Of a stretch of 64,000 nt of DNA, positions 13,044-62,767 are shown piece by piece. The notes beneath the pieces are model-generated. The model was not told the DNA's origin and searched no databases. It saw nothing but the letters and a program-made list of their open reading frames with translations. Position 1 is the stretch's first letter. Each line of letters begins with the position of its first letter. Made by a program: the position numbers and the translations under genes. The DNA comes from a virus. Where the stretch lies: positions 1,010 to 65,009 of the IMG/VR virus record IMGVR_UViG_3300016675_000632; one strand, written 5' to 3'.

Positions 13044-13114
13044 GCTGCTGTGTCCGAGTGGTGAGGCGTTGGACTGCAAACCCAACTACGGGGGTTCAAA
13101 TCCCTTTAGCAGCT
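13044..13114 (+). tRNA. trnC: tRNA-Cys (GCA)
   Basis: Acceptor GCTGCTG/TAGCAGC, anticodon loop CTGCAAA, TTCAAAT T-loop, U73; no encoded CCA; A-C mismatch at 31:39. Confidence 0.9.
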
Positions 13115-13174
13115 CTCAAGATTTTTTTTTGGTTAAGTGATGTTGGAAATTTTTGTTAATAAATTTTTAATCGT

Positions 13175-13206
13175 AAAAAAGGCGCGTTGTGAAACGCGCT
13201 TTTTTT
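13175..13206 (+). terminator. Intrinsic terminator with GUGA tetraloop
   Basis: GGCGCGTT-GTGA-AACGCGCT plus T tract. Confidence 0.8.
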
Positions 13207-13289
13207 ATTAAAAAACCTGTTATAAATGCAACTTTGTTGCAACAATAAACATTTTTTTGCCTTTTTTCGCATATTTCGCAAATAAAATT

Positions 13290-13319
13290 TTGCGGTTTAA
13301 AAAAAACGTTTTACCTTTG
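13290..13319 (+). promoter_or_regulatory. Bacteroidota sigma-A promoter
   Basis: TTG-N19-TACCTTTG upstream of tRNA-Ser. Confidence 0.7.
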
Positions 13320-13374
13320 CTTCGTCAAACTTACCAAGTATGCCGATGCAAAAAAATAGTAAGTTGATAAAAAT

Positions 13375-13459
13375 GGAAAATTGGGCGAGTGGTAAGTCAG
13401 CAGTTTGCTAAACTGTAATATCTGTAAAGGTATCGTAGGTTCGAATCCTGCATTTTCCG
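13375..13459 (+). tRNA. trnS: tRNA-Ser (GCT)
   Basis: Acceptor GGAAAAT/ATTTTCC, loop TTGCTAA, long variable arm, GTTCGAATC, G73. Confidence 0.9.
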
Positions 13460-13465
13460 CGAGAG

Positions 13466-13680
13466 AGGCAAAGCAAATAGGATAAAGTGTTTTGTATAAA
13501 ACACATCAGCAACTAAAATCGCAATTTCTAAGGCCAACCAATTTATCCTATTTGCGCCTTATGTTCTACGAAGACTGCAACGCGGGGCGCATTTTACCGC
13601 GTTTGAAAGAAGCCTTGCGCAAACAGGGGTTAAGGCTGCAGTTTTGTTGGGGTGTAACCCGCGCCACATTTTAACCCTGT
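13466..13680 (+). ncRNA. Unidentified structured RNA between tRNA-Ser and tRNA-CAT
   Basis: 14-bp perfect stem 13473-13486/13542-13555, inner 7-bp hairpin, stems 13579-85/13597-603 and 13623-33/13671-80. Confidence 0.6.
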
Positions 13681-13703
13681 ATGAATGTGGATTTTTTGAA
13701 AAT

Positions 13704-13777
13704 GGTTTTGTAGCTCAGTAGGTCAGAGCAAGCCCCTCATAAGGGCGAGGTCGTAGGTTCAAACCCTGCCATAACCA
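13704..13777 (+). tRNA. tRNA with CAT anticodon (elongator Met or Ile2; not initiator)
   Basis: TAGCTCAG D-arm start, GCCC-CTCATAA-GGGC, GTTCAAA T-loop; one T-T mismatch in the acceptor stem. Confidence 0.85.
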
Positions 13778-13789
13778 CAAACAACCAGA

Positions 13790-31220: not shown

Positions 31221-31664
31221 TTGCACCCCAATAACAGACAAAAAAAATTTGTAGATTATAGCGGGTTGGTTAATCTTGCCAAAATCAGCACTCCAGAGCT
31301 ATGCGAGGGTGGGCGCAAGAGTATTTTTATTCGCCCGCAAAAATCTTTTCAAAAAATAATAAAAATCTTTAGTAGGAACGGTTGGATTTGTTTTCTTTAC
31401 GAAGTAAAAAATGTTAATAACAAAAAAATTGATGGCTGCGACCACTTTATACTATTACACGAAAACAGGAATTTTGGTATAAATCTTTATGTTCATAAAA
31501 ATTGCTATTGGGCATATATTAGAAATTTTGAAAAGAATTTTGAATATCACGAGCAGGCAGGCAAAAACAATAAAATAGGCAAATTTTTATCCAAAATTAT
31601 CAACCCCGCCGACTACCCACAATTTTACCCACAAAGCGAAAAATTAACTAATGAAAAAGCATAA
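31221..31664 (+). CDS. Hypothetical protein (TTG start, or ATG 31198 with a shift in the A8 run)
   Basis: ORF track; start uncertain. Confidence 0.65.
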   Translation: MHPNNRQKKFVDYSGLVNLAKISTPELCEGGRKSIFIRPQKSFQKIIKIFSRNGWICFLYEVKNVNNKKIDGCDHFILLHENRNFGINLYVHKNCYWAYIRNFEKNFEYHEQAGKNNKIGKFLSKIINPADYPQFYPQSEKLTNEKA

Positions 31665-31965
31665 ACACCACAACCCCCGCTACCAAACCAAGCGAGCGGG
31701 TAAAGTCAAAAAGGCTATTGAGTTCATCTTAAAATCCCAAAGACGAGCCCGCAATCGGCGAATGAAAGCCCGCAAGATATTCAGCCGCCAATCACAGCCA
31801 AAAAGCGGTAATGGTGTTTTATCTACCTTTACCGCAATGAGTTTCGCAATGGGCGCATTGGGCAAAAAATGAACGGGCGCACTTGGCGGCGAAATGCGCC
31901 AAGAACTATCTAAAACTTTTCTATCAACATCTACCAAAAGCCCGAAAATTAACGGTATGCGGTAG
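31651..31965 (+). CDS. Basic hypothetical protein; ends at TGA 31872 or, with read-through, at TAG 31965
   Basis: The frame stays open 30 codons past the TGA and closes 18 nt before the next ATG. Confidence 0.55.
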
Positions 31966-45629: not shown

Positions 45630-46376
45630 ATGGTAAATTTAACCGATTTAGAGCTTTACAGCATATTCGCGGAGATTACCCGCGCCTTTCCAAGTTCGCC
45701 GTTGAACACAAACGGCTACCCTTATTTTATCCAACCTAAAACCTTTGCGCCCATCAGCCAGCCCGCCGATTTGGATAGCGATAACTTCGCAAAAAGCCAA
45801 TCCTATTTATCTAAGCCGTTTTTTTTCAGCAGGGAAAGTGCAAATAAAATAGAAACTTTCTACCCTGCTATAGTGCTGCTGCAAAGGGACGGCGTTATAA
45901 ATTTGGTAGATAATAGTATTTCTACCGATTTTGACCTTTTGTTTTTAGATAAACTTGGCAGCCAAACCAACAGCGCCGCGATAAGTGGCAACACGTTAGC
46001 CAACAGGACGGAAGAAGAGGTTTTGCAAGATTTAAAGCTGCTTTGCAAACAGTTTTTAGACGAAGCCAATAATTTTATTTACGCTACAGTTGAATACCCA
46101 GCATCGGTAATAAAAAACATTTGGGCTTCTGAAAATTACCTTAAACAGCAGAAAATAAGCGGGGATATTGTGAATTATCAGAAAAAAGAAAGCCTCACAA
46201 GCTATTTAGTAAACAGAAACCAAATACCTATAGGCACAATGCTAACCAAAGAAAGCACAGCAGCCCGAACCGTTGGCATAGCTCTTGAGCTAAGGCTCAA
46301 AACTCAAATGTGCCTAAGTCGCCCAAGTTTTGATTATACGCCAGCGAAAAAAGAATTTAACGGTAAAATTTGCTAA
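45630..46376 (+). CDS. Tail completion/terminator-like protein
   Basis: Position and size in the tail operon. Confidence 0.55.
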   Translation: MVNLTDLELYSIFAEITRAFPSSPLNTNGYPYFIQPKTFAPISQPADLDSDNFAKSQSYLSKPFFFSRESANKIETFYPAIVLLQRDGVINLVDNSISTDFDLLFLDKLGSQTNSAAISGNTLANRTEEEVLQDLKLLCKQFLDEANNFIYATVEYPASVIKNIWASENYLKQQKISGDIVNYQKKESLTSYLVNRNQIPIGTMLTKESTAARTVGIALELRLKTQMCLSRPSFDYTPAKKEFNGKIC

Positions 46377-55168: not shown

Positions 55169-55206
55169 AAAAAGCCCACGCACTAATTGTAGCGTGGGCT
55201 TTTTTT
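55169..55206. terminator. Bidirectional terminator
   Basis: AAAAAGCCCACGC/GCGTGGGCTTTTTT. Confidence 0.85.
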
Positions 55207-56554
55207 ATCTGCCTTGTTGTAACTGTCTTTCTCTTCTCATACTCTCGGCAGCCAAGAATTTTAATGTGTTTTCTTCTAATGCGTATACCGTTGCATCTTT
55301 CAAGTGGTCGTTTTTTGTGGTCGTGTTGATAAAATCACCGTCCCTATTTTTTACCCATTGCAACTCTGAATACTCGCGTTTTAGGTTTTCGCTGCTGCTG
55401 TCTAAATATAATCTCTGGCTTTGTATGTAATTGATACCACTAAGAACTGAACCAGCCCCTTTTTTTGCCCCTCTTATGTAAATGCTGCCATCTCCTATTT
55501 CTCGTATCGCTTTTATCATTGCTGGGGCTGAACTATCGGCAGTAACCCAAATCTCGCCATTATCGCCAATGTAATTGCAATTGTTATCATACAACCATTT
55601 ATAAGCAGATAATATGCCGTCGGCTATTTGCTGATTGGTGAGCTGCGAACCGTACAAAAATTCTTTCACATACAACGCACCATCATAAAACCCAACAAGC
55701 ACCAATGCTGTAGGGTCTGTATATCCAAAGTCTAAACCCAAAGATAAACCTTCAGCTTTTGTAGGGAACTGTTCGCACTCTTTCCAATTGGGAAAAACCA
55801 AACCTTCAGCCCGTCCTGTTTTGCCCTCACCATAAACACGCCACCAATTAACATCGTGCCGTCTGCTCTCAATGTTAGATACCATAGCATCGGAAAGAAA
55901 GCGATTATCCTTGTAGGTTGAAGTAAAGGCGACCACGTGAGGATTTTTTATATTAGTGCCAAATTGCATTACTACCTTGGTATGCACCCAAAAACGGACG
56001 GAAGGGTTATAATCTATAAAAACAAGCTGCATAGTACGAACAGCTAAAGCATCATAAACCCCGTAAATTACGCTGGTAGCCTCGCAAATATAGGTATAAT
56101 CATATTTACCAAACTTTGCTTTTTCTACACTATCCACGCCCATAAATTGCAAAGTGCTGCCGTTTGAAAACGTGTAGGTGCTGGTACTTATATTGTATTT
56201 TATATTAAAGTTATTGCCCAAATCCTCGCATATTTTTACCGATATGGGGATAGCATCTCGGCGCAAAGAAGTATAATGTTTAGCAACCACGCGAACGGAA
56301 ATTTTATTACCCAACGGCTTTTCTCCCAGCTTTTTGTCTGGTCTTAGCTTTTCGCCGCGTAAGCATAAAAATATCATCAATTGCATCAACGAATAAGTCT
56401 TGCCGCTTGATGTGCCACCCTGATTAACTACCGTTTTTATATCCTCTCCGTAGTCTTGGCAGACGTGGTAATTACTGATAAAAATAGAGGAGGTTTCAAA
56501 ATTACAAACCTTTGGGCTTAGATATTCGCTGTTGATATATTCTATCATAGGCAA
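55205..56554 (-). CDS. terL: Terminase large subunit (PBSX family)
   Basis: Walker A QGGTSSGKT, YICEA, FIDYNP, GLDFGYTDP, DHLKDA. Confidence 0.95.
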   Translation of the reverse strand: MPMIEYINSEYLSPKVCNFETSSIFISNYHVCQDYGEDIKTVVNQGGTSSGKTYSLMQLMIFLCLRGEKLRPDKKLGEKPLGNKISVRVVAKHYTSLRRDAIPISVKICEDLGNNFNIKYNISTSTYTFSNGSTLQFMGVDSVEKAKFGKYDYTYICEATSVIYGVYDALAVRTMQLVFIDYNPSVRFWVHTKVVMQFGTNIKNPHVVAFTSTYKDNRFLSDAMVSNIESRRHDVNWWRVYGEGKTGRAEGLVFPNWKECEQFPTKAEGLSLGLDFGYTDPTALVLVGFYDGALYVKEFLYGSQLTNQQIADGILSAYKWLYDNNCNYIGDNGEIWVTADSSAPAMIKAIREIGDGSIYIRGAKKGAGSVLSGINYIQSQRLYLDSSSENLKREYSELQWVKNRDGDFINTTTKNDHLKDATVYALEENTLKFLAAESMRRERQLQQGR

Positions 56555-57205
56555 TTATTCTAATATACCATTGGGGATTTTTCGGATTTCGCCCCCCAAA
56601 TTGATGTTGATAATTTTTGCCTCTTCGCTATCGCCTTTGCTAATTTCTAACTCTTTCTCGCGCATTTTCAAATCGTCTTCGCGGGCTTGCTTTTGAACGT
56701 GCCTATCAATAAGCCGCTCGCTTATTCGGTTGGCTTCTTTTTGATAAATTGCAGCCTCTACGAAAAGCCCATTGTTATACAAATCAACAAAGGCAGCGTT
56801 AAAAACATCTTTTATTTCTAAAAGCTCGCTTTCTATATCCACAACTTTTGCAAACTCCAAATCCTTTACTACATCATCGACGCAAGAAGCAAAAACGGGG
56901 TCTTTTTTCTTTAGCTCATAAATTCTTTGTCTACCAACGCCCAACATTTGCGCTGTAGTCTTAATAGAGTTCCCGTAGCACAAAGCTTTCAAGAACTCTT
57001 TTTTTAATTCTATATTGTCTTTTTCAAATTTTTGAGCGTTTTCATCAACTAATTTAACAATATCATCTCTGCGGGCGGCTAAAGTGTCCGATTTGTAATC
57101 TATAAACCTATCTTTTTGCTTTTTATTAGCCTTTTCATCTCTAATTTGTTGTATAGTTTTAATGTTTAGCGGTCTTTCGTCCTGCTCTTTCTTTTTTCTT
57201 GGCAT
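56555..57205 (-). CDS. terS: Terminase small subunit
   Basis: HTH FLKAL...IKTTAQMLGVGRQRIYELKKKDPVF, abutting terL. Confidence 0.8.
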   Translation of the reverse strand: MPRKKKEQDERPLNIKTIQQIRDEKANKKQKDRFIDYKSDTLAARRDDIVKLVDENAQKFEKDNIELKKEFLKALCYGNSIKTTAQMLGVGRQRIYELKKKDPVFASCVDDVVKDLEFAKVVDIESELLEIKDVFNAAFVDLYNNGLFVEAAIYQKEANRISERLIDRHVQKQAREDDLKMREKELEISKGDSEEAKIININLGGEIRKIPNGILE

Positions 57206-57495
57206 AGCAAATTTGGGGTGTTTATTTGATAATTAGGCGGTGGCTTGTTTCAGTTGGGCGCATAACAGCGCGTATAAAATAGTTGCATCAAGGAGAACGG
57301 CACTTGCCGCGTGTTGGTAGGTGATTAGCCCAACCGTTGGGGCTGGGCTGTTGAAAATAGGATAAATAAAAATAAGTTGGCATTTTGCAAGTTCCTTTGT
57401 TACTTCTGTAGGTTTTTCGTTGGGTAACAGGGAAAGCCTTTTTTGGCAAAGGTTGCAAACTGCAAACAGTTTAGTTTTGATGCGGTGGCGATTCG

Positions 57496-58950
57496 TTACT
57501 CGTCCGCATCGGGTGGGGCAAGAAATTGCGCCTCAATTTCTGCATAATGCAGCTTTATTTGGCGTGGGTCGCCCTTGTAAAAAATTAGTACGTTTTGGTG
57601 CGTCTTAACGACTTTTCGGTTTCTCATTTGTGCGCTCGCTCTGATGGAGGCGTTGCCCGCAACCTCTAATAAAATCAATTCGTTGTAGAGATGCAAGCCC
57701 GCGTCCATAAATATACGCTTTATGTCGTCTGGGAAAGCATAATAAGCTCCTTTTCTATCGCGCACATCACCCACAACTATAGCCGCAAAAGAATTTTCTT
57801 TTAAGCATTGGCAAGCATCGGTGAACGCATCGCGCAAGATGCTGATAAAATCTGCATAGGTAGGCTGATTGCTCGCATCGTTGGGCAAATCACTGTATAT
57901 CTCCAAATCATAGTAAGGCGGGCAAGAAAATAGCAAATCTTGGCTATCCTTGGGGACGTGCTGTAGAACATTGCGCCCATCATCGCAAATATAGCGTATT
58001 TGGTCGCCAAAGTCCTTTATATGTTCGTTATTGATAGCTACTTGTTCGGGGCGCAATTCAATCCCTACAAATTCGTTGCCAAAATGTACGGCCACGCGAC
58101 CAAATACGGTATCACCCGCAAAGCAGTTAAAATACTTACCATTGGGACGACCGAACCATTGGCAGATAATTTCACATAAAACGGGGTCTAATAAGGAAAC
58201 GCCGCCAACGAGGTAGTTATCGGGGACTTCGTAATAGTTTTCCTCAAACTCTTTCGTGGTCAGCGTGCGTCCCAATTCTTTTTCTTTCTGCTCTTTCTTT
58301 CGGTAAAACGCGGGGTCGTTTATAGCCATATCTTGCCGCAAGGTTTGCTCTCGGCTTTCGCCTTTGTCGTTGATAATAGCCCGCCAAATTCGCTTTCGTT
58401 CCTGCCAATAACCCTGTCGCGTATCCAACACCGAAAAGGGCGGCACACCAAAACGACGGGCGAGTGAGCCTGCGCGGTCTGCGCTTTCGGTTCTATGGTC
58501 GCTTATCGGTTCGGGTTCGGGCGTGGATAGCTCAATTTCTACGGATTGGCTTAGTTCCTCTATTTCTAAACCCCAGCTTTCAATTTCTACGACGGTATAG
58601 TCGGCCTGTAGAATTTCTATGTCCCATTCCCCAGCTTGGCTATTATCGGTGATGATAAAACGCCGCTTTTCCTCTTCGGTGAGGTTGGCACAGTCTTTTA
58701 TTCATTCTGCGGGAACGTGGCTATAGCCCAACTCGCAAAGGGCGCGGTAACGTTGCGTTCCGCCCAAAATTATGCCTGTGCTGGAGTCATACACAATCGG
58801 ACGGAGGGCAAGCATTTTTCAGAAGTCAGAAACGCTGGTTTTGAGTTTAGCTAGTGCTTCGGGCGATATTCAGCGTGGGTTGCGCTCGTTGGCGCGAATA
58901 GTGGAAAGGTCAAAAAGGGGCTTATCGCCCCAATCAATAACATTTTTCAT
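57496..58950 (-). CDS. ParB-like N-terminal domain fused to an N6/N4 DNA methyltransferase; three in-frame TGA codons in the ParB part
   Basis: ATG 58950 is in frame with the track ORF 57496-58446. NPR*I...DF*KML.LRPIV...ILGG.QRYRAL...PAE*IK...RFIITDN...GEWD; then SLARRFGVPPFSVLDTRQGYWQ, CFAGD, SCPPYYDLE. Confidence 0.8.
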
Positions 58951-60635: not shown

Positions 60636-61053
60636 TTAGTCTTGAGTGCCTGTGAGCGGGTTTTGGTCGGTTTCGGGCAATTTTGGTTCATCGCGCGGGG
60701 GCGTTGGGTCTGCGGGTGGGTTTGGGTTATCGTTGCAACCGCAATCGCAAACGCATTTTGCAAGCCTGCAAAGCAAGCCTAATAAAGTTGTTTTTTCACC
60801 AAATAGATAAGCCCCTTTTTTTTACGTCTGCCTCAAATGCAAAGTATTCTTTTTGCGCTTTTTGGACGGCTGCGCAATCTATACGGGTTAGGCTAATGTT
60901 GCGGTCGCAACCGATATGATAGCCTTTTGCAGGATACAAACCCTCCGCTGTAGTGCTTACCTCGCCAACGGGTAAATCGGTTAGAATAAAGCTATCTAAG
61001 AATATAGTTTGCCCTTTTTCGGGCGTGATGAATAAACGGCTTTCTTGTGCCAT
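60636..61053 (-). CDS. Hypothetical protein split at an A8 run; Cys/Pro-rich second part
   Basis: Track ORF 60796-61053; the +1 frame reads KKGAYLFGEKTTLLGLLCRLAKCVCDCGCNDNPNPPADPTPP...TGTQD to TAA 60636. Confidence 0.5.
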
Positions 61054-61745: not shown

Positions 61746-61952
61746 TTAATCGCTTTTTTGGTGAGGTTGGCTGGGGTCGCTTCTGTGGGTTGCTTGGGGT
61801 TCGTTGTGGGGCTGCGTGGTTTCATTTTGAGTTGGGAAAAGCACAGCAAATAAAGTAAGCAACCCCGTTGCCCCCACGCCAAACTGCCAACCACCCCAAA
61901 GGAACGCAAACACAGCAGCAAAAAAAGCAAACATTTTTAGTATATTTATCAT
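61746..61952 (-). CDS. Small 2-TM protein
   Basis: ORF track; ATGA overlap. Confidence 0.65.
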   Translation of the reverse strand: MINILKMFAFFAAVFAFLWGGWQFGVGATGLLTLFAVLFPTQNETTQPHNEPQATHRSDPSQPHQKSD

Positions 61953-62767
61953 TGCTCACCTCCTTTTTTGTTACGGCGCATTGGCGTGTGTTTGCGTTGG
62001 TAATCTATCACTTCGGCTTCAGAGGGCAGCCCGTTGGGGAAATTTGCCTTGTCGTTAGATAGTTCTTTTAGTTTGGCATCGGCTATCTCTAATTCTTTTT
62101 TGAACATCAACGCCTTTTCACTTTGTCCCGCTTTATTGGCCGCCGCTATAGATTTGCGCAAATTGAGTTTTTTATGTATCAATAAAATGCTGTTTTGAAT
62201 AGGGAATTTCGCCTGTTGCATCTCGGCTATAGCTTCGCGTTCTTCGTCTGTAAATTGCAGCAAGTCGCTAAAATCGGGTTCTGGGGCTGATTCGTTCTGC
62301 TGTTGTTTTGTATCGTTCAACTCTATTACTCGTTGGGCTGCGGGTTCTGTTTTTTGGTCTTTGGGGACTTGCCATTGTCCGCGCTGTTGGGTGGATAGGT
62401 TGGGTTTATAATTAGGCACTTGCACGTCTAAAGTTCGCTTGTCTTTGGGTAGCCAAAAATCAGCTTGCAAAGTTTGTTCTTTAGATGTGGCATTACCAAC
62501 TAACCCGCTTGCATCTATAAACTCAAAATCTACCTGCTTGCGCTCATTTTTGCCGTTTTGCGCCTTTTGTCCGCCTCCCCCGCCGTTATTTTGGGCAAAA
62601 TCAAACAAAATAGGGGATATATCGCGCTTTTTAGACGTTTGGGGGCTGTTATCAGTAGGGCTGTAGTTTGGCTTTAGATGTTGGGCTTGGGTATCATCTT
62701 GTGTTTTAGATGTGTAATTTTCTTTATATTTGCGTGTTTGCATCTGCGCATCTTTCTGTTGGGGCAT
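61949..62767 (-). CDS. Low-complexity Q/N/P-rich protein with helical C-terminus; probable -1 frameshift extension of 62782-63861
   Basis: Frame is open upstream through C CCA AAC TAA; ends TGA TAA. Confidence 0.75.
   Translation of the reverse strand: MPQQKDAQMQTRKYKENYTSKTQDDTQAQHLKPNYSPTDNSPQTSKKRDISPILFDFAQNNGGGGGQKAQNGKNERKQVDFEFIDASGLVGNATSKEQTLQADFWLPKDKRTLDVQVPNYKPNLSTQQRGQWQVPKDQKTEPAAQRVIELNDTKQQQNESAPEPDFSDLLQFTDEEREAIAEMQQAKFPIQNSILLIHKKLNLRKSIAAANKAGQSEKALMFKKELEIADAKLKELSNDKANFPNGLPSEAEVIDYQRKHTPMRRNKKGGEQ

Follow-up and report, generated by a model that had tools for sequence, protein, structure and literature searches.

The 64,000-nt window analyzed here (positions 1010–65009 of a 65,340-bp IMG/VR viral contig with a CheckV completeness of 68%) carries on its minus strand a gene for a predicted DNA-modifying enzyme, a ParB-like domain joined to an S-adenosylmethionine (SAM or AdoMet) methyltransferase (MTase) domain, that is interrupted by three in-frame TGA codons. 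In the translation of the window, the frame runs for 484 codons from ATG 58950 to TAA 57496. Codons 27, 44 and 83 are TGA, and neither TAA, TAG nor a frame break occurs within it. These coordinates agree with those of an earlier annotation made from the letters of the window without database searches (hereafter, the sequence-only reading), which had described a 484-codon gene with three TGAs and no TAA, TAG or indel. The gene and its interruptions are as follows:

57496–58950, minus strand: ParB-like N-terminal domain plus N6/N4-type SAM methyltransferase-like domain (translation, profiles and AlphaFold model)
58870–58872, minus strand: site 1 TGA, codon 27, context NPR*IS, limited to the clade of the window (clade A)
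58819–58821, minus strand: site 2 TGA, codon 44, context DF*KML, common to clade B (L004, L005, L011, L096)
58702–58704, minus strand: site 3 TGA, codon 83, context PAE*IK, common to clade B

Under genetic code 11, the longest open piece of the gene is its C-terminal 316 codons, which begin at GTG 58446. This GTG is the first code-11 start past the third TGA and lies within the conserved GVPPF motif, as the sequence-only reading had noticed. Comparison of the open reading frame (ORF) lists under codes 11 and 4 identified this gene as the only credible one in the window that is interrupted by TGA. The code 4 reading repairs this one gene and brings no genome-wide gain in gene calls.

The same TGAs are found in environmental variants of the gene. 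Metagenomes of 13 studies, of freshwater, wastewater, sludge, river, aquatic, mollusc and animal-gut origin, contain DNA of the phage, and variant contigs were placed on the gene from runs X3, X4, X5, X8, X11 and X13 (freshwater, gut, aquatic, sludge, mollusc, river). The contigs of these six other runs are 96–99% identical variants that retain every TGA they cover: site 1 in X5, X8 and X13; site 2 in X5, X8 and X11; and site 3 in X5, X8, X11 and X13. TGG, which the sequence-only reading had named as a sign of error if supported by reads, was absent from every site that these contigs cover. All nine differences listed between positions 58660 and 58960 fall at third codon positions and none at a TGA; in the whole gene, third positions account for 42 of the 46 variant sites listed. 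Furthermore, the X5 and X8 variants have lost one nucleotide and gained another 6 nt away (58236–58242), two indels that together change two codons and restore the frame.

A protein search also identified a small subfamily of relatives at >65% identity to the window protein. Clade B (L004 plus L005, L011 and L096, from four samples) shares 76–77% amino acid identity with the window protein and has TGA at window sites 2 and 3, with ACT (Thr) at site 1. Clade C (L003, 68% identity) has AAG (Lys), ACT (Thr) and TGG (Trp) at sites 1, 2 and 3, respectively; its TGAs are at two different positions, at which the window codons are TAT (Tyr) and TGG (Trp). The number of TGAs per gene therefore differs by clade (2 or 3), and the clades together have TGA at five independent sites, with TAA and TAG at none. 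TGA makes up 17–21% of the single-step nonsense opportunities in the gene, and the probability that five of five would be TGA is ~1.5e-4 to 4.5e-4. For example, the one-step stops at the Tyr site would be TAA or TAG, yet clade C has TGA there.

Selection on the frame was estimated by the Nei-Gojobori method (NG86) as the ratio of nonsynonymous to synonymous substitution rates (dN/dS). For the window gene and L004, dN/dS was 0.096 in the ParB part, at a dS of 1.2, and 0.05 in the stretch bounded by the TGAs that both have; comparison with L003 gave values of 0.08–0.15. A ratio of ~0.1 in the ParB part is far from the value near 1 that the sequence-only reading had associated with relaxed selection. 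No net frameshift, TAA or TAG was found in any clade except in the single contig L002, which has two frame breaks. A frame left untranslated from the common ancestor of clades A and B onward would be unable to show such a combination of low dN/dS and shared TGAs. The preference of the sequence-only reading for read-through or recoding over random decay is borne out by this low dN/dS and by the persistence of the TGAs in other contigs and relatives. At the level of sequence, these comparisons demonstrate that the TGA codons are real, conserved, repeatedly gained and embedded in a frame under strong purifying selection. The gene is very probably functional and translated through its UGAs.

In-frame stops were absent from all 80 IMG/VR homologues (45–48% identity), from 37 environmental contigs with a related ParB domain, in which TGA is an ordinary terminator, and from the 11 cellular homologues checked. 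The only genuine internal TGAs in the complete 50,692-bp clade-C contig, which was stitched from five overlapping loci, are the two in the ParB-MTase gene, and none was found in credible neighbor genes on the short clade-B contigs. A blastn search of the gene against the isolated phages of INPHARED returned no match, and IMG/VR scans with the MTase alone and with the terminase alone as queries returned no close relatives. A replication-region protein search aimed at the tRNA clusters of the relatives recovered only contigs <2 kb.

The window protein matches the Pfam models of its two domains below their cut-offs: N6_N4_Mtase (PF01555) at 24.2 bits (cut-off 26.7; homologues at 38–48 bits) and ParB_N (PF02195) at 18.9 bits (cut-off 26.3). 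The homologue P0021 clears both thresholds (32.6 bits for ParB_N). A profile of the subfamily matches the modification methylase structure 2zie (E 1e-7) and, over residues 14–133, Spo0J (1vz0, E 1e-3). An AlphaFold (AF2) model built with Trp placed at the TGA positions has predicted local distance difference test (pLDDT) values of 85–93 for residues 10–100 and ~87–97 in the methyltransferase core. A Foldseek search with the model related the C-terminal domain to the class-I SAM amino-methyltransferases Trm11, TrmN and TrmM (E ~1e-8); matches to MTases swamped this search as regards the ParB-like part. The catalytic-looking motif SCPPY is invariant throughout the family. On these profile and model matches, the protein is a predicted DNA modifier whose N-terminal domain weakly resembles ParB_N and whose C-terminal domain resembles N6/N4-type methyltransferases. 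The group that it transfers may be other than a simple methyl.

The homologues also inform the identity of the residue inserted at the TGAs. Site 3 and one of the clade-C sites align with the two conserved Trp columns (the counts of Trp being 33/71 and 67/71) and are TGG in sister clades. The nearest intact homologues have TGG at site 3 too, and the alignment confirms the description of this site (PAE*IK) as a conserved Trp in the sequence-only reading. The homologue column at site 1 contains I, T, L, F or V. A Codetta-style column sum ranked Trp first. Neither Gly nor Cys fits the five TGA columns, and no homologue has Cys at any of them. Trp is probably the best single guess for the inserted residue. 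In recoded phages, TGA aligns with Trp (Borges et al., bioRxiv 10.1101/2021.08.26.457843).

We consider it likely that the gene undergoes gene-restricted TGA recoding by a trans-acting decoder that probably inserts Trp. This would be a minimal form of the TGA recoding of other phages. The infected cell would supply the UGA-decoding activity (e.g., a suppressor tRNA from either phage or host), and the three UGA codons would be read as an amino acid, most likely Trp, to yield the full-length enzyme. The rest of the genome reads the same under codes 11 and 4 and makes little use of TGA as a terminator, with sense TGAs confined to one cassette. The UGAs could in this way gate or throttle the enzyme, so that it would be made, for example, only late in infection or only where the cell provides the decoder; a switch of this sort, set by timing or host, had been suggested in the sequence-only reading.

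The tRNA genes of the record are in a single cluster:

13044–13778, plus strand: tRNA-Cys(GCA), tRNA-Ser(GCU) and tRNA-Met(CAU), the only tRNAs of the record (tRNA search; none reads UGA by standard rules)

The spacers of this cluster are long and structured, and its tRNA-Cys(GCA) has U73. A match to a Bacteroidota-type promoter (13289–13319) lies just upstream of tRNA-Ser. RNA structure 3' of the TGAs is not conserved, with z-scores of +1.5 to -1.9 that differ between homologous sites, and the TGAs have no conserved +4 base. Read-through that depends on a selenocysteine insertion sequence (SECIS) or is stimulated by structure is disfavored because no conserved RNA structure follows the TGAs. 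No paper on read-through of UGA in Bacteroidetes came up in a literature search.

Three lines of evidence make a host among the Bacteroidota likely. The sigma-A-type promoter motif TTTG-N17-23-TAnnTTTG has 17 matches against 6.4 expected, a number that none of 100 shuffles reached. Furthermore, the isolated phages with the most similar terminases have Bacteroides and Flavobacterium as hosts, and the nearest cellular homologues are from Cytophagales and other Bacteroidota.

TGA is also scarce as a terminator in this phage group. Counts of ORFs ending in TGA, all obtained with one ORF procedure, were:

Window: 3/85
Clade-C contig, MTase fragment excluded: 3/59
L134: 0/12
This phage group, total: 6/156 (3.8%)
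IMG/VR loci with intact homologues: 302/701 (43%)
Environmental loci: 85/213 (40%)
Bacteroidota genomic loci: 69/244 (28%)
Bacteroides phage BT03: 5/40
Lambda: 37/63

Fisher tests of the phage group against the controls gave p values of 5e-23 to 7e-11, and of 0.014 against the control subset with the lowest TGA use (12.5%). The scarcity persists at 50% GC, and low GC is therefore not its cause. It is a trait of the phage group, since L134 shows it too. This trait is consistent with a UGA-suppressing setting or with the path in which divestment of the codon precedes recoding, and is not proof of suppression; a standard-code relative of recoded phages has 2.7% TGA stops (Borges et al., bioRxiv 10.1101/2021.08.26.457843). 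The TGA-ended ORFs of at least 70 aa in the window are three:

3443–4279, minus strand (ORF scan); next in-frame TAA or TAG 4 codons past the TGA
60796–61053, minus strand (ORF scan); next in-frame TAA or TAG 23 codons past the TGA
61949–62767, minus strand (ORF scan); next in-frame TAA or TAG 1 codon past the TGA

Back-up stops behind TGA-ended genes were considered as a signal and found uninformative, with a TAA or TAG expected within ~22 codons at this composition. The small ORFs 31651–31965 and 60727–61053 end in TGA and are open for 30 and 22 codons further.

Several observations weigh against gene-restricted recoding or against Trp as the residue inserted. The expectation of the sequence-only reading that homologue columns would relate to a single amino acid held for two of the five TGA columns, which are Trp, and failed for the other three, which are Pro (64/66, site 2), Ile/Thr/Leu and Val/Ile. 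Some of the TGAs, as judged from this alignment, arose otherwise than as a synonymous change of TGG. In the column sum, Ile was only narrowly behind Trp. All 189 other Trp codons of the window are TGG, a caveat of the sequence-only reading that stands. Coding density, which it had also proposed to compare, is 88.4% under code 11 and 90.2% under code 4, and reached 91.3% in a control in which TAG was reassigned; code 4 repairs the gene but raises density no more than the TAG control does. Its further caveat that no tRNA(UCA) is present remains in force as well: ARAGORN at a lowered threshold and a permissive Rfam search of the tRNA cluster returned noise and no tRNA(UCA) in the 65.3-kb record, release factor (RF-1, PCRF) and tryptophanyl-tRNA synthetase profiles had no match in the same record, and the 50.7-kb clade-C contig lacks any tRNA, with neither long contig shown to be complete, so that absence of the decoder from the phage is not established. 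Suppressor tRNAs (Sup-TCA) are detectable in 35% of TGA-recoded phages (Borges et al., bioRxiv 10.1101/2021.08.26.457843) and were found in 15% of code-4 phages (Cook et al., PMC11210395). The scarcity of TGA terminators extends to L134, which has no interrupted gene, and may be a trait of the lineage or of the host instead of a result of suppression. Finally, L002 (a contig of ERR8576873 with a 94% identical gene) keeps all three TGAs and has frame breaks near the start and near codon 380 before it ends in TAA; it appears to be either a decaying copy or a poor assembly.

The right end of the viral contig (record positions 64913–65340) repeats a left-end gene (record 2617–3219; window 1608–2210) with 83% nucleotide and 80% amino acid identity. 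This gene is all that the ends share, and the sequence between has no detectable homology. Either two strains were joined in the assembly, which wraps around a genome of ~62.3 kb that is circular or terminally redundant, or the gene is truly duplicated.

The main rival to gene-restricted recoding is a leaky-stop attenuator, in which a standard-code host would read UGA at a low rate with near-cognate tRNA-Trp(CCA) and produce trace amounts of the enzyme. Near-cognate read-through would insert Trp as well, and leakiness agrees with the lack of a detected suppressor tRNA, the use of TGG at all remaining Trp codons, the position of TGAs at tolerant as well as Trp sites and the variation in TGA number by clade (2 or 3). 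Typical read-through is, however, ~1% or less per codon. Three stops read at ~1% would leave ~1e-6 of the product, which is hard to square with a dN/dS of 0.05–0.1 in the N-terminal domain, and neither a conserved +4 base nor a conserved structure 3' of the TGAs is there to enhance read-through. We regard leaky stops as an unlikely explanation on balance. A host with a reassigned code (code 4, Trp, or code 25, Gly) that the phage simply follows is less probable still. Reassignment would account for both the missing phage suppressor tRNA and the scarce TGA terminators, and hosts with code 25 occur in wastewater and freshwater, and phages on host code 25 are on record. TGA would, however, drift into all genes of such a phage, whereas TGG is used at every one of the 189 other Trp codons and sense TGAs occupy a single gene in both long contigs. 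Gly also lies outside the residues that fit the five columns, and the evidence favors Bacteroidota hosts, for which no code but the standard one is known.

Explanations that deny decoding of the three UGAs as a standard amino acid fare worse. The gene could be a pseudogene, or its ParB part could be dead and only a shortened methyltransferase be produced from a start inside the frame, as the 316-aa C-terminal piece from GTG 58446, the frame breaks in L002 and the loss from the window of the AdoMet decarboxylase partner that clade B keeps (described below) might suggest. We find this very improbable given the dN/dS of 0.05–0.13 upstream of and between the TGAs at dS ~1, the confinement of all nine population variants in the first 300 nt to third positions, the lack of any TAA, TAG or net frameshift in clades A–C over this divergence, and internal start codons that are not conserved between clades. 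Selenocysteine insertion, for which UGA is the codon, is fainter as a prospect: none of the five homologue columns contains Cys, no conserved hairpin follows the UGAs, Rfam returned no match to tRNA-Sec, and sites that shift between clades would each need their own SECIS element. That the true codons are TGG and the TGAs an error of sequencing or assembly would be a concern for one metagenome-assembled contig such as that of the window, but the same TGAs recur in independent assemblies of at least six other runs and in diverged relatives, which makes an artifact the least credible of these explanations. A-to-I editing of UGA to UGG was set aside, as the flanks are unlike the target loop of TadA. 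Termination-reinitiation or frameshift bypass was likewise rejected: residues align one-to-one across each TGA, and the fragments would be 16–38 aa long and lack start codons.

The ParB-MTase gene is directly upstream of the genes for a 216-aa protein and the large terminase and stands at the head of the packaging genes. The features around it, and their counterparts in clade B, are:

55205–56554, minus strand: large terminase (TerL; PHROG terminase large subunit, E 3e-23)
56555–57205, minus strand: 216-aa protein at the small-terminase (TerS) position (synteny with a relative)
57206–57495, minus strand: intergenic region 3' of the ParB-MTase gene, conserved at the nucleotide level in all clades
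~57392–57433, minus strand: non-coding 3' remnant (last ~14 codons) of an AdoMet decarboxylase gene (alignments)
L004:3763–4077, L005:2563–2877 and L011:1455–1760: AdoMet decarboxylase gene of clade B (PF02675)

In clade B, a gene for a pyruvoyl AdoMet decarboxylase of ~100 aa overlaps the 3' end of the MTase gene. The ORFs match PF02675 (E 4e-14 and 2e-15) and contain the ESH self-cleavage motif. An AdoMet_dc profile search found no match in the 65.3-kb record, and the decarboxylase has been lost from both the phage of the window and the 50.7-kb clade-C relative. The intergenic DNA (window 57206–57420, minus strand; L006:8410–8640; L004:3960–4275; L011:1640–1970; L002:2615–2925) is conserved even between phages whose proteins are just 25–47% identical. 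Its invariant core contains a GCGC-N6-GCGC hairpin, the loop of which is variable, and then a AACTGAAA..CCACC stretch. The alignments revealed no covariation, and the element has no tRNA or Rfam match and is not tRNA-like. Its possible roles include those of a promoter or leader for the packaging genes, of a pac site and of a small RNA.

The window and the clade-C contig have a syntenic structural module with 25–47% amino acid identity. Among the three clades, the ParB-MTase is 65–76% identical, TerL 37–40% and the protein at the TerS position 29–35%. In L134, whose TerL is 76% identical to that of clade B, the place of the ParB-MTase fusion is occupied by a gene for a standalone 186-aa ParB-like protein (L134:1284–1844) with no MTase domain and no TGA. 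The conservation of the ParB-MTase above that of TerL and the protein at the TerS position, the conserved intergenic DNA and the lack of the fusion in L134 fit an exchange of the ParB-MTase cassette among these phages, TGAs included. Exceptional constraint may be an alternative to such exchange.

The other Trp codons are all TGG in both long contigs and the ParB-MTase gene has gained TGA at least five times, from which we infer selection for TGA in this gene rather than neutral drift under a changed code. A tentative extension of the recoding model, which we rate below it and above the leaky-stop alternative, is that the UGAs are a positively selected translational gate that travels with a mobile DNA-modification cassette and is opened by a decoder other than a recognizable phage suppressor tRNA. 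The cassette, with or without AdoMet decarboxylase, would have moved between Bacteroidota phages and would keep or re-gain two or three UGAs in the first domain of the enzyme. Production of the enzyme would then depend on an active decoder, for instance late in infection or in certain hosts.

TGA recoding in phages is already known, and the gene described here shares several features with the TGA-recoded phages (Agate, Jade and some crAss-like phages; Ivanova 2014, Yutin 2021, Borges et al. 2021/2022). These include a conserved gene of the late region that has TGA in frame, the presence of TGG in sister lineages (at two sites here), depletion of TGA as a terminator, a probable Bacteroidota host and the lack of a detectable suppressor tRNA, which applies to 65–85% of code-4 cases. 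Recoding is concentrated in late genes (Borges et al., bioRxiv 10.1101/2021.08.26.457843). However, recoded phages have sense TGAs across structural and lysis genes and come from the gut, whereas here one gene is affected, code 4 gives no better gene calls elsewhere in the window and the habitat is freshwater and wastewater. Also in contrast to those phages, the same gene is affected at different positions in phages whose terminases are just 37–40% identical, and three of the five sites are not Trp positions. The dual-coded blocks detected by Mgcod (Pfennig, Lomsadze, Borodovsky, bioRxiv 10.1101/2022.06.29.495998) likewise leave most of the genome the same under codes 11 and 4. They are resolved in windows of ~5 kb and cover at least 20% of a contig, whereas one 1.45-kb gene is involved here. 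In phage Q-beta, a single leaky UGA read as Trp yields the extended, functional read-through protein A1 at a controlled level. There, a complete gene ends in one leaky stop and has two products; here, the first domain itself contains the two or three stops, and nothing useful would be made without read-through. What is new is the restriction to one gene, conserved and re-gained across distant phages, together with the non-gut habitat, the link with a probably mobile DNA-modification cassette and the invisibility of the recoding to density-based code prediction.

Stop-codon recoding in phages has been proposed to time late genes, but the known cases involve hundreds of codons in dozens of genes, with cause and effect tangled. 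In the present case, a single gene with two or three repeatedly gained UGAs is all that is involved, in a genome that is otherwise read alike under both codes, and one reporter would be enough to test the regulatory hypothesis. Such cases escape code predictors that rely on density, and interrupted phage "pseudogenes" may hide more of them than have been counted. The gene also poses the question of what decodes UGA when no suppressor tRNA is visible and points to a DNA-modification enzyme whose dosage or timing apparently matters enough for gating.

The 50.7-kb relative also has a Dam-like (MethyltransfD12) gene (contig positions 45786–46526; L010:4173–4907) that ends in TGA. Further TGAs follow 2, 13 and 14 codons on, with a TAA at +17.

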